Shown here: positions 19,422 to 53,126 of the stretch, piece by piece
How the letters are laid out: every line of letters starts with the position of its first letter
How positions within the stretch are numbered: the first letter of the stretch is position 1
Assembly: GCA_963665095.1 (NCBI GenBank)
Contig: OY762069.1
Span: 5,088,001 to 5,152,000 of the forward strand
Source of the DNA: an uncultured Desulfobacter sp.
GTDB lineage: Bacteria > Desulfobacterota > Desulfobacteria > Desulfobacterales > Desulfobacteraceae
Direction: 5' to 3'
Length of the DNA: 64,000 bases
Position numbers and translations under genes: made by a program
Notes under the pieces: generated by a model
What the model saw: the letters and a program-made list of their open reading frames with translations, nothing else
Database searches by the model: none
What the model was told of the DNA's origin: nothing

Positions 19422-20474
19422 TTGAAATTGTTTAAGATTGTCAGATGTATTTTTTTAGCTTGTTTACTTGTTATGCTGGCTGCAACTTTGCCGGCAAGTG
19501 CAAAAGAGCTTGTTGTTGCCTTCACCAGTGATACGGCAGGGTTGGTTCTGCCCTGTGGTTGAGCCGTTAAAAAAGGAGGACTGGCCCGTCGGGCCGGTGC
19601 AATTGAAGATCTCAGGAAAAAGAATCCCAATTTTATTCTGGTGGATGCCGGAGATATGTTTTTCAACACCAGGACGATTCCGGAACAAAGAGCCAGTCTG
19701 ATTCTTCGCAGTATGGATTACATGAAGTATGATGCGGTTACTTTGGGTGAAGGGGAGTTCGGGTTGGACTTTAAGTTTTTAGTCAAGGCGCTTTCCCGCA
19801 CCTCTATGTCTTATGTGTCTTCAAATCTTCAGATATTATCTGATGATAATAAAACAATTTTTACACCATACATTTTAAAAAAGATAGATGGCATAACGAT
19901 AGGTATAACGGCGGCTACACCCGGCGTAATGATGAATGATTCTGTCCGACAGAATCGCAGGATCACGATTAATAAGCCTATTCCTTCCCTGAAGAAGATT
20001 GTTGAAGAGCTGAAGGGTAAGAGTGATTTCATCATTGTGCTTTCACATTTCGGCAAAAGTGGCACTCAGAATCTATTACGGTATAATGATTTTTCTGATG
20101 TTTCTCTGGTTGTTGCCGGGCATGGGAGGGGCATTACCAATAAAGCAGAGAAACAGGGCGATACCATCATTGTCCGGAACAGCATGGGTGGAGAGTATCT
20201 TGGTGTAATTAGATTTAACCTTGAAAATACAGGAAAAGTAAAAGATTTCAAGATTGAAAATATTCCACTTAGCGACAATCTGCCGGAAGATAAATTCATT
20301 GCTGGAGAGATTGAAAAATTTACAGCTTTGGATGTAAAGGTCAAGCAAAAAAAAGAGAAACAGGATCGCTTGGTAAAAAAAGAGAAGGAGCGTGCAGAGG
20401 AGGCAAAAAAAGCAGATGAAATTCTACAGCTTTCTCCGGAAGCATTCATCAAAATGATGGATCAAAATAAATAA
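19422..20474 (+). CDS. UshA/5'-nucleotidase-like metallophosphoesterase-fold selenoprotein (PCGU, UGA at 19560-62)
   Basis: ORFs 19374-19562 and 19641-20474 are in frame. Readthrough gives signal peptide-FTSDTAG..PCG-U-AVKKGGLARRA..LVDAGD..LSH..GHG. SECIS-like hairpin follows. Confidence 0.8.
19580..19598 (+). promoter_or_regulatory. Candidate bacterial SECIS element
   Basis: ACTGGCCC-GTC-GGGCCGGT; apical-loop G lies 26 nt after the UGA. Confidence 0.7.
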
Positions 20475-51661: not shown

Positions 51662-51874
51662 ATGACACAGGTTTATGTATTTAAAGGGTTTCCTTTTGAA
51701 AAAGGTCAAAAAATACGAATTGAAGATTCTCCTCGTGCCGGGGACTGGGAAGTGGTTGATGTTTCAAAACATAAAGTGACGCTCCGTTGTCCCATTTCAA
51801 AAAAAGAGTTCACCTGGGACCGGTTTTGCTATATGACTGAAAAGGTTGAGGGACTTTGGCCCCAACCTGATTGA
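51662..51874 (+). CDS. Small hypothetical protein
   Basis: Good RBS (AAGGAG); 70 aa; beta-rich pattern. Confidence 0.7.
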   Translation: MTQVYVFKGFPFEKGQKIRIEDSPRAGDWEVVDVSKHKVTLRCPISKKEFTWDRFCYMTEKVEGLWPQPD

Positions 51875-51928: not shown

Positions 51929-52435
51929 ATGGAAGTAATTTTACTGATGGCCTCCACCCTGGATGGAAAAATCGCCAGGAATGACAGTCAGTTTGTAGAC
52001 TGGACTGGCAAGGCAGACAAAAAGTACTTTGTGGAGATAACCAAAAAAACCGGTGTGATCATCATGGGGTCAAAAACCTATGATACCATTGGCAAGCCGT
52101 TGCCTGGTCGGCTAACCATAGTTATGACCCGGGATAAAACCCGGTGCTCTGATCAGGACCATCTGGTTTTTACGGACCAGGCTCCGGATGAGATTCTGAG
52201 TATGCTGGAACGTAAAGGGTATGACAGTGTCGCCCTGGTGGGAGGGGCCACGATTAACTCTTTGTTTGCCCACGCCGGTTTGATTACTCAGGTCCACTTG
52301 ACCCTGGTTCCCCTGGTGTTTGGTTCAGGGCTCTCCCTGTTTGACCGGCCTTTGGATATGCGCCTCGCATTTAAGTCGAGCCGGGAGATTGAGAACGGGC
52401 ACCTTTTACTCATTTATCAGGTGGCTGAATCATGA
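51929..52435 (+). CDS. Dihydrofolate reductase / RibD C-terminal family protein
   Basis: MASTLDGKIA, DKKYF, IMGSKTY..IGKPLPGR, VGGA, PLVFGSG. Confidence 0.85.
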   Translation: MEVILLMASTLDGKIARNDSQFVDWTGKADKKYFVEITKKTGVIIMGSKTYDTIGKPLPGRLTIVMTRDKTRCSDQDHLVFTDQAPDEILSMLERKGYDSVALVGGATINSLFAHAGLITQVHLTLVPLVFGSGLSLFDRPLDMRLAFKSSREIENGHLLLIYQVAES

Positions 52436-52566
52436 AAAAGGATATCCCTGAAAAGAAGAAAAAATCCTTCCTGACCCGGTTTTTCAACTGGATCGCAAAA
52501 GGCGCTGAAAGAGCAAACCGACAGGGGCAGGGAATCTGCCGGTCCTGAGCCCCCCGGAAGAAATGA
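52432..52566 (+). CDS. Putative 44-aa selenoprotein (CxxU); 38 aa if UGA 52546-48 is a stop
   Basis: ATGA overlap with the upstream gene; MKKDIPEKKKKSFLTRFFNWIAKGAERANRQGQGICRS-U-APRKK; SECIS-like hairpin at identical spacing to the one at 19580. Confidence 0.6.
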
Positions 52567-52583
52567 CCGGCCCGTGGGGCCGG
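52566..52583 (+). promoter_or_regulatory. Candidate SECIS element
   Basis: A-CCGGCCC-GTG-GGGCCGG; loop G 26 nt after UGA; no U-tract after it. Confidence 0.6.
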
Positions 52584-52603
52584 CAACCATCTTAAAAAAG
52601 CCC

Positions 52604-52631
52604 TTGAATCTTGCGGCAAAGCCGATATACT
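52604..52631 (+). promoter_or_regulatory. Candidate sigma70 promoter
   Basis: TTGAAT-16 nt-TATACT upstream of the 52698 ORF and mntP. Confidence 0.45.
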
Positions 52632-52697
52632 TCGCAAAAAAAATTATCGTCCGGGATTGCTTTGTCCCGGATGTTGTAATGTCAAAGGATTGAATTT

Positions 52698-53126
52698 ATG
52701 AAAGAACGGGTCAAAGGGCTGCTTCAGCAAATCAACTTTATTGAAACAGATATGGAAATCCAGAAGCAGATTCTTTTTTCCATTCCTGAAGGGAATAGGG
52801 AGGAGATGGAAAAAGTTGTGGGGACCATAGCCGCCCATAAGGAGCAGATAAAGAAATTACGGGCACGTATAAAGCAGGTTGACCCTGAAGAGTACAACCG
52901 GATTACCATGCTGGAACAGGCCACGGAGAGATTCAGGCAACTGTCTGAAAATAAGAAATGGGTCGAGGTGGTCACGTTGAATGAAACAGGGCACTGTTCT
53001 GTGATGCTCAATGACGGTTCCTGCATAGAGTGCCTGGTTAAGGCCAGGGATGACAAGGGCAACTGGACGGTTTTGACCCTGGAGGGTGAAACAAAACAAT
53101 ATCCCGGCGGACTGGTTCGACAGTAA
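52698..53126 (+). CDS. Hypothetical protein
   Basis: 142-aa ORF with a helical N-terminus and beta C-terminus; 12 nt upstream of mntP. Confidence 0.7.
   Translation: MKERVKGLLQQINFIETDMEIQKQILFSIPEGNREEMEKVVGTIAAHKEQIKKLRARIKQVDPEEYNRITMLEQATERFRQLSENKKWVEVVTLNETGHCSVMLNDGSCIECLVKARDDKGNWTVLTLEGETKQYPGGLVRQ

Follow-up and report, generated by a model that had tools for sequence, protein, structure and literature searches.

Does the small open reading frame at positions 52432-52566 (+ strand) of the window, i.e. of the whole 64,000-nucleotide stretch of Desulfobacter DNA analysed here, stop at its in-frame UGA or does it encode a selenoprotein, and what might so short a product do? The original prediction had described a 44-residue frame ending UGA-APRKK-UGA and coupled to a DHFR-like gene by ATGA, with a Cys at -3 to the UGA forming a CxxU motif after an amphipathic helix. 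The sequence bears this out, as the 44-codon frame translates as MKKDIPEKKKKSFLTRFFNWIAKGAERANRQGQGICRS-TGA-APRKK-TGA and its ATG at 52432 shares ATGA with the TGA of an upstream DHFR/RibD_C-like gene (51929-52435, + strand; PF01872 and PF00186 above cut-off). A putative Shine-Dalgarno-like AGGTGG (52419-52424, + strand) lies 7 nt 5′ of the ATG. The peptide comprises a basic N-terminus, an amphipathic helix, a Gly-rich linker, the motif C-R-S-U and a short basic tail, and carries 14 Lys/Arg against 3 Asp/Glu. Cys36 (52537-52539) opens the CxxU motif, the in-frame UGA (52546-52548) is the predicted selenocysteine 39, and the second stop (52564-52566) is presumably the true gene end. Across 52300-52700 the contigs of two public runs, possibly the source of the present DNA, are identical with 0 differing letters. 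A promoter-like site at 52604-52631 is uninformative, three such sites having been found against 3.9 expected.

If the UGA were an ordinary stop, the peptide would end Cys-x-x and the hairpin that follows would be a terminator-like or RNA-stability element. This is how database records have it, 249 of 261 short proteins of the family stopping at Cys-x-x, that is, at the UGA. In the DNA, however, the first stop past the helix is TGA in all 118 homologous loci, which represent some 30 families within the order and phylum and include kin, so that they are not independent, while the next in-frame stop varies freely (TGA 49, TAG 36, TAA 33). Homologs ending in UAA or UAG at this position, which had been named in advance as evidence against the prediction, are absent from the 118. 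TGA was not selected for in this comparison, since the homolog searches translated across all stops and would have given a Cys the better score; in the host genome TGA terminates 1921 of 5527 long ORFs. An invariant first stop over 30 families beside a freely changing second is unlike the behaviour of a terminator codon.

Conservation of a coding type also continues past the UGA, which again argues against an ordinary stop. In the first 60 loci the third codon after it specifies Lys or Arg in 53, by means of seven different codons, and the second specifies Pro via four codons, Ile via three, or Arg via synonymous codons. The tail is 2-6 codons long in 74 of the 118 loci and longer in the others. 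The Cys at -3 recurs in 112 loci and a Cys at -1, giving adjacent CU, in 6/118, and ligand spacing among family members is generally loose (CxxU, CU, CCxU, CxxCCC). A Cys form appears to exist as well: the database protein P0216 reads CLT-C-QVRP where L101 has CLT-U-QVKP and L090 CPT-U-QVRP, although this is a single record from a 1.2-kb contig, known from protein only. P0209, also a single database record known from protein only, has CxxC. Scanning for loci with P0216 returned 2 unrelated stretches only, and with P0049 1 locus. Judged from the sequences collected, Cys counterparts of the family are very rare.

The UGA is followed by a candidate bSECIS-type hairpin (52566-52583, + strand; stem 52567-52573/52577-52583) with 7 bp, a 3-nt GTG loop (52574-52576) and a folding energy of -13.6 kcal/mol, situated 25 nt past the UGA; the TGA at 52546 is succeeded by 17 nt and then by the 18-mer 52566-52583, which places the loop G at +26. 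The hairpin satisfies all constraints of the bSECIS model as set out in PMC13188914, i.e. a loop of 3-9 nt, a stem of 4-16 bp, a distance of 16-37 nt from the UGA, an energy of -7.5 kcal/mol or lower and a G within the first two loop positions. The second stop is not recodable under this published model because it lies only 7 nt from the hairpin loop.

A rule based on pairing only was scored on the 118 loci and, as background, on the 1921 ordinary TGA stops of the host genome, and found a hairpin in 94 and 348 of them, respectively. When G was also required as the first loop base the counts were 85/118 and 83/1921, so that the loop opens with G in 85 of 94 family hairpins against 83 of 348 in the background. 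A strict rule was passed by 33 of the first 60 loci and by 74 of the 1921 ordinary stops (3.9%). G or T occupies the second loop position in 51 of 53 hairpins, compensatory stem changes run to as many as six pair types (pair 5 shows six), and in the 85 loci with a loop G the distance from UGA to hairpin clusters at 22 nt (37 loci) and 25 nt (20 loci). We rely on the genome background rather than on a pairing shuffle (288/315 against a shuffle maximum of 200), which is biased since the hairpins were picked for pairing. The prospect that the hairpin would prove not to be conserved was thus not borne out, as most loci retain it, with covariation.

These data also bear on the ordinary-stop reading, in favour of which stand the 24 of 118 loci with no passing hairpin and the hairpin read on the minus strand, whose score is terminator-like, the A-rich Lys codons supplying a T tract. 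The latter match is answered by the G-U pairs, which favour the + strand fold 33 to 8; in addition, the + strand has no U tract, the loop G is far commoner than in the background and the spacing is clustered. Taken with the invariant TGA, the conserved tail and the apparent Cys form, this makes an ordinary stop very improbable. A repeat or REP origin of the hairpin was rejected, both strands of the 6.9-Mb genome together having only 2 sites within two mismatches of it, this one and that of the UshA-like gene described below, and the single Rfam match was a chance miRNA hit far under the gathering score. The hairpin had further been placed in the 3′ UTR, free of coding constraint. This holds for the gene in the window, where its first base is the final one of the second stop codon and it is effectively 3′ untranslated, and for the 58 of 85 loci in which the loop lies past the second stop, but in 27/85 it falls inside the coding tail.

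The UGA and SECIS of an UshA-like PCGU gene in the window (gene 19422-20474; UGA and SECIS 19560-19598, + strand), taken here for comparison only, had been proposed as a near twin. There the TGA at 19560 is likewise followed by 17 nt and then by an 18-mer with 2 differences from 52566-52583, and both sites read TGA-GCC with the loop G at +26. The 16/18 match and the equal 17-nt spacing are real, but they are a peculiarity of this strain, with just one of the 118 loci having both match and spacer: only two loci match the UshA-like hairpin with no more than two mismatches, the 17-nt spacer is found only at the window locus, where it results from one extra codon, and most same-genus homologs have a 14-nt spacer. 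A common origin of the two elements is not supported, as the match is limited to one strain and the spacer sequences differ, and the likeness of the hairpins is best taken as convergent, towards a GC-rich target of SelB. The UshA-like gene itself (PCG-U) scores 169 bits on NF041198 (cut-off 275) and 71 bits on NF049981 (cut-off 140), and its 350-residue product compares with a model of 519 positions, which marks it as a divergent member.

The absence of selABC from the genome was another finding that would have told against recoding; selA, selB, a UGA-containing selD and tRNA-Sec are all present. Among the 94 genomes of the order that carry the small gene selA was found in 93, and the exception has selB; as selA occurs in 386 of 401 genomes of the order, this co-occurrence discriminates little. 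Two other genes of the host genome, FdhA-like and HdrA-like by their motifs, have an in-frame UGA followed by a hairpin. The small gene resembles these, selD and the UshA-like NF041198 gene in having an in-frame UGA, a stem-loop 16-37 nt further on and a G at the start of the loop, and it would share the SelA/B/C/D machinery of canonical SECIS-dependent genes. It is unlike canonical selenoprotein genes in that it has no enzyme fold, at most loci places Sec within 2-6 residues of the C-terminus, often has its SECIS past the stop and has very rare Cys homologs. A tRNA-Pyl is also encoded by the host genome (G000:C1 900717-900790).

A different kind of in-frame TGA is found in four near-identical copies of an IS91-family transposase (PF14319 and PF04986) of the host genome, at G000:C1 115170(-), 135117(-), 932374(+) and 3331778(-), where TGA replaces the last Cys of a zinc-binding motif, with a stable hairpin after it. 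No stop is present in the closest orthologs from relatives (80-89% identity; compared loci L151 and L152), and for this reason the case looks like a chance change, in contrast to the small gene. The transposase TGA probably arose by a nonsense change in this strain alone, and some leakiness is possible in a host that uses Sec.

The invariant UGA, the covarying hairpin and the Sec machinery together uphold the central claim of the original prediction, that of a CxxU micro-selenoprotein with a SECIS, and the small gene likely encodes such a tiny selenoprotein, a conclusion that these sequence comparisons strongly support. In the proposed mechanism SelB-tRNA(Sec) would bind the hairpin 22-25 nt past the UGA and Sec would be inserted, after which the ribosome would stop 2-6 codons later in the 74 loci with short tails, and further on elsewhere. 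We consider SelB-dependent insertion followed by release within a few codons to be highly probable.

A homolog of the read-through peptide is present in 24 of 24 same-genus genomes. Profiles built from homologs matched 94 of 401 genomes of the order and 15 of 401 genomes drawn across the phylum, 10 of the latter being real members on inspection, and the gene is single-copy in almost all carriers. Named database matches come from Desulfamplus, Desulfobacterales, Desulfococcaceae, Desulfonema and one record labelled Candidatus Magnetoovum. Among 1.84 billion representatives searched, 200 clusters at 50% identity matched with E ≤0.001, nearly all of them short; two of the best 150 are long chance matches. 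Left out of the 118 loci were duplicate genomes (L031-L033, L038, L039, L065-L067, L071, L073), weak phylum matches (L075 and L076, YHS-fused and LDCC-type with a TAA end; L077, without Cys; L078 and L079, chance) and genes cut by contig ends (L102, L118); the order matches G110, G189, G225 and G228 and some weaker ones also lie outside this set. The 38-residue ORF had no match in phage and plasmid collections, and PDB sequences gave no real match (best E 0.81). In five database proteins the C-terminal part of the family is joined to the start of another protein (P0021, P0022, P0053, P0067, P0090; an FmdB zinc ribbon in P0053), and these are probably chimeric assemblies or frameshifts. P0011 carries the label Candidatus Magnetoovum chiemensis but hardly differs from Desulfamplus members, pointing to bin contamination or transfer.

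The small selenoprotein families given in Table 1 of PMC13188914 include NF041197 (dual CXXC small protein), NF041239 (CC/Se motif), NF033934 (KCU-star), NF041115 (metal-binding), NF041114/NF041211 (UXX-star) and TIGR04081 (selenobacteriocin). The present family is like them in being short, with Sec near one end, in some cases in CxxU or CU, and in often being cut by gene callers, and yet none of these seven models matched any of 25 members or of 20 divergent members at E ≤10. The window protein is without an NCBIfam or Pfam model, 25 close members are not consistently covered by one, and the 119-family table of PMC13188914 holds no family matching the small gene. In the accessible text of PMC12013277 and four supplements WIARG, RLAKAN and LDCC are absent, and the sole instance of WIAKG is in a Prx-like protein that is unrelated. 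The family was not found in the accessible text of PMC13326102, PMC1976440 and PMC9312934, though alignment figures such as OS_HP2 of PMC1976440, together with BSepDB Table S2, could hold it, and full-text literature searches returned nothing on it. The families that a review, in the part available, credits to Haft and Tolstoy 2025 have NCBIfam or Pfam models, none of which the small-gene family matches. The proposed recoding mechanism is canonical, and the family appears uncatalogued. The statement that no described family could be recognised is correct for the window protein, but it needs qualifying at family level, where a non-Sec family, NF040898, is probably related.

NF040898 (CC_mini_metal) is named 'LDCC motif putative metal-binding protein'; its name and description make no mention of Sec, and metal binding is 'putative' in the name itself. 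The window protein has no match to this model (cut-off 30 bits) and, on that score, is not itself a member. Of 20 divergent family members scanned, 10 score 15-29 bits, among them seven with RLAKAN in place of WIAKG (23-29 bits); the RLAKAN-type members came from a profile built without them, and all end CxxU. P0271, a truncated form of L133, reaches 30.1 bits, and L137 shares 13 consecutive identical residues, WFKRFLERLAKAN, with the canonical LDCC protein P0283. In the reverse direction two canonical LDCC proteins, the one that shares these residues with L137 among them, are the weakest matches of the broad family profile (E 3.5 and 4.0). Scored on the family profile, LDCC-type sequences reach 6-19 bits, against 13 for the best chance segment of the host genome, and 5 of 6 beat all 500 shuffles. 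Profile-profile comparison of the family with NF040898 gave probabilities of 93% and 96%, over the helix only (22-25 columns).

The two groups have in common small size, a (K)GW/FxxRFLxxLA[KR]xN-type helix, a Gly-containing linker and C-terminal Cys ligands, and the RFLExLAKAN-type N-terminal helix that characterises NF040898 is found in the family. They differ in that the window protein has WIAKG for RLAKAN, CxxU for DCC and a longer basic N-terminus, and in that its gene has a SECIS, no YHS fusion and no metal-gene surroundings. The adjacent Cys-Cys (LDCC/MDCC) is a trait of NF040898 that the C-R-S-U of the window protein does not reproduce, its nearest equivalent being CU in the six loci noted above. 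LDCC-type domains in the phylum were YHS-fused in 5/5 scanned, with a multicopper oxidase next to one and a P-type ATPase next to another; L075, L076, L083, L084, L086 and L087, from other lineages of the phylum, are YHS-LDCC fusions ending CH or CC. Caution is needed because the link depends on one subfamily and on a helix of 22-25 columns, of an amphipathic kind that readily gives matches; only 2/6 hairpins pass in the bridging subfamily (L125, L133-L135, L137, L142). With this proviso the family is probably a Sec branch of the LDCC/CC_mini_metal proteins in which CC has been replaced by CxxU.

AlphaFold2 models the peptide with a helix at residues 13-31 (52468-52524; mean pLDDT 72), in line with the alignments and with a hydrophobic moment of about 0.7, and W20 and G24 are the best-kept helix residues among homologs. 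The Gly-rich linker between helix and CxxU varies in length among family members. The model contains no thioredoxin-type fold, and the CxxU motif sits on its low-confidence tail.

The gene neighbourhood varies among the loci. The coupling to the DHFR-like gene is seen in the window, but such a gene lies upstream in only 26 of 118 loci, and it is a lineage-specific neighbour, probably without a functional partnership. Other upstream genes are purM (26), SufS-like (8), RACo (5) and CoA-disulfide-reductase-like (4), and those downstream encode a c554-type cytochrome (22), TsaD (12), an MraY-like protein (8) and a deacetylase (5). With no common partner among the loci the small gene looks like a stand-alone unit, and its neighbours are mostly housekeeping or redox genes rather than metal-resistance genes. 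A linkage to selD was rejected, the AIRS-fold neighbour being PurM. Two neighbouring ORFs have no Pfam or NCBIfam family: one of 70 residues (window 51662-51874), which precedes the DHFR-like gene in 6 loci, and one of 142 residues with CxxC (window 52698-53126), downstream in 7 of the first 54 loci. The c554-type cytochrome (L003:1689-3035 and 21 other loci) is distantly ExtKL-like (NF040886, 50 bits) and has no copy in the host genome (tblastn, E 1e-10).

What, then, might the selenopeptide do? The occurrence of a single copy in almost all carriers, inside unrelated operons, and the SufS-like genes upstream in 8 loci would suit a selenium store, carrier or status switch, in which the ratio of Cxx-stop to CxxU product would report selenium supply. 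One Sec per chain makes for poor storage, however, and no sel gene was seen among the identified neighbours; moreover, the downstream genes vary by lineage while the helix residues are kept, which suggests that the peptide itself acts. We regard such a role as unlikely. The same selenopeptide could instead use CxxU as a selenenylsulfide redox relay, or as a scavenger of oxidants or persulfides, with a disulfide reductase to recycle it. Among bacterial selenoproteins CxxU is common as a redox motif, as described in PMC13188914, and in some lineages the gene adjoins CoA-disulfide-reductase-like (4 upstream, 4 downstream), SufS-like (8), RACo (5), NifU-like or DsrE genes. Yet each of these partners is common to only a small part of the 118 loci, a thioredoxin-like fold is missing from the model with the motif on its low-confidence tail, six loci have adjacent CU instead of CxxU, and the likely relatives have CC or CH, so that a redox role, though possible, seems doubtful.

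We favour a third function, metal binding, for three reasons, namely the link to the LDCC proteins, ligands that are loosely spaced and the absence of any oxidoreductase fold. Selenolate is a strong ligand of soft metals. The basic 44-residue peptide would dock by its amphipathic helix on a membrane surface or a partner protein, and the flexible Cys-x-x-Sec tail, presenting a thiolate/selenolate pair, would bind Cu(I) or another thiophilic metal and act as a buffer or hand-off module. On the modelled helix and the motif, docking together with binding of a soft metal such as Cu(I) by the Cys/Sec pair is plausible, with the balance about level. A wider proposal is offered tentatively, namely that the family is a metal chaperone or buffer in minimal form, about 40-60 residues long and based on selenium, a Sec-switched branch of the LDCC proteins that is kept almost only in its Sec form over some 30 families related to sulfate reducers, and for which selenium is nearly indispensable.

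With the small gene a major group of marine sulfate reducers would gain a widespread and very small selenoprotein family. In present annotation the protein stops at the UGA, as in WP_269433926.1 of Desulfonema ishimotonii, a 41-residue 'hypothetical protein', and methods that rely on Sec/Cys pairs would miss the family since Cys homologs are rare. As the SECIS lies past the stop in most loci, free of coding constraint, the family offers a clean set of natural variants for SelB recognition in the phylum. At 44 residues synthesis is feasible, enabling a direct test of Sec against Cys in metal binding, and the family could open a way into the function of the LDCC mini-proteins, which are uncharacterised. 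If the wider proposal is true, selenium may compete for Cu(I) or Hg(II) in cells rich in sulfide, which outcompetes thiols.
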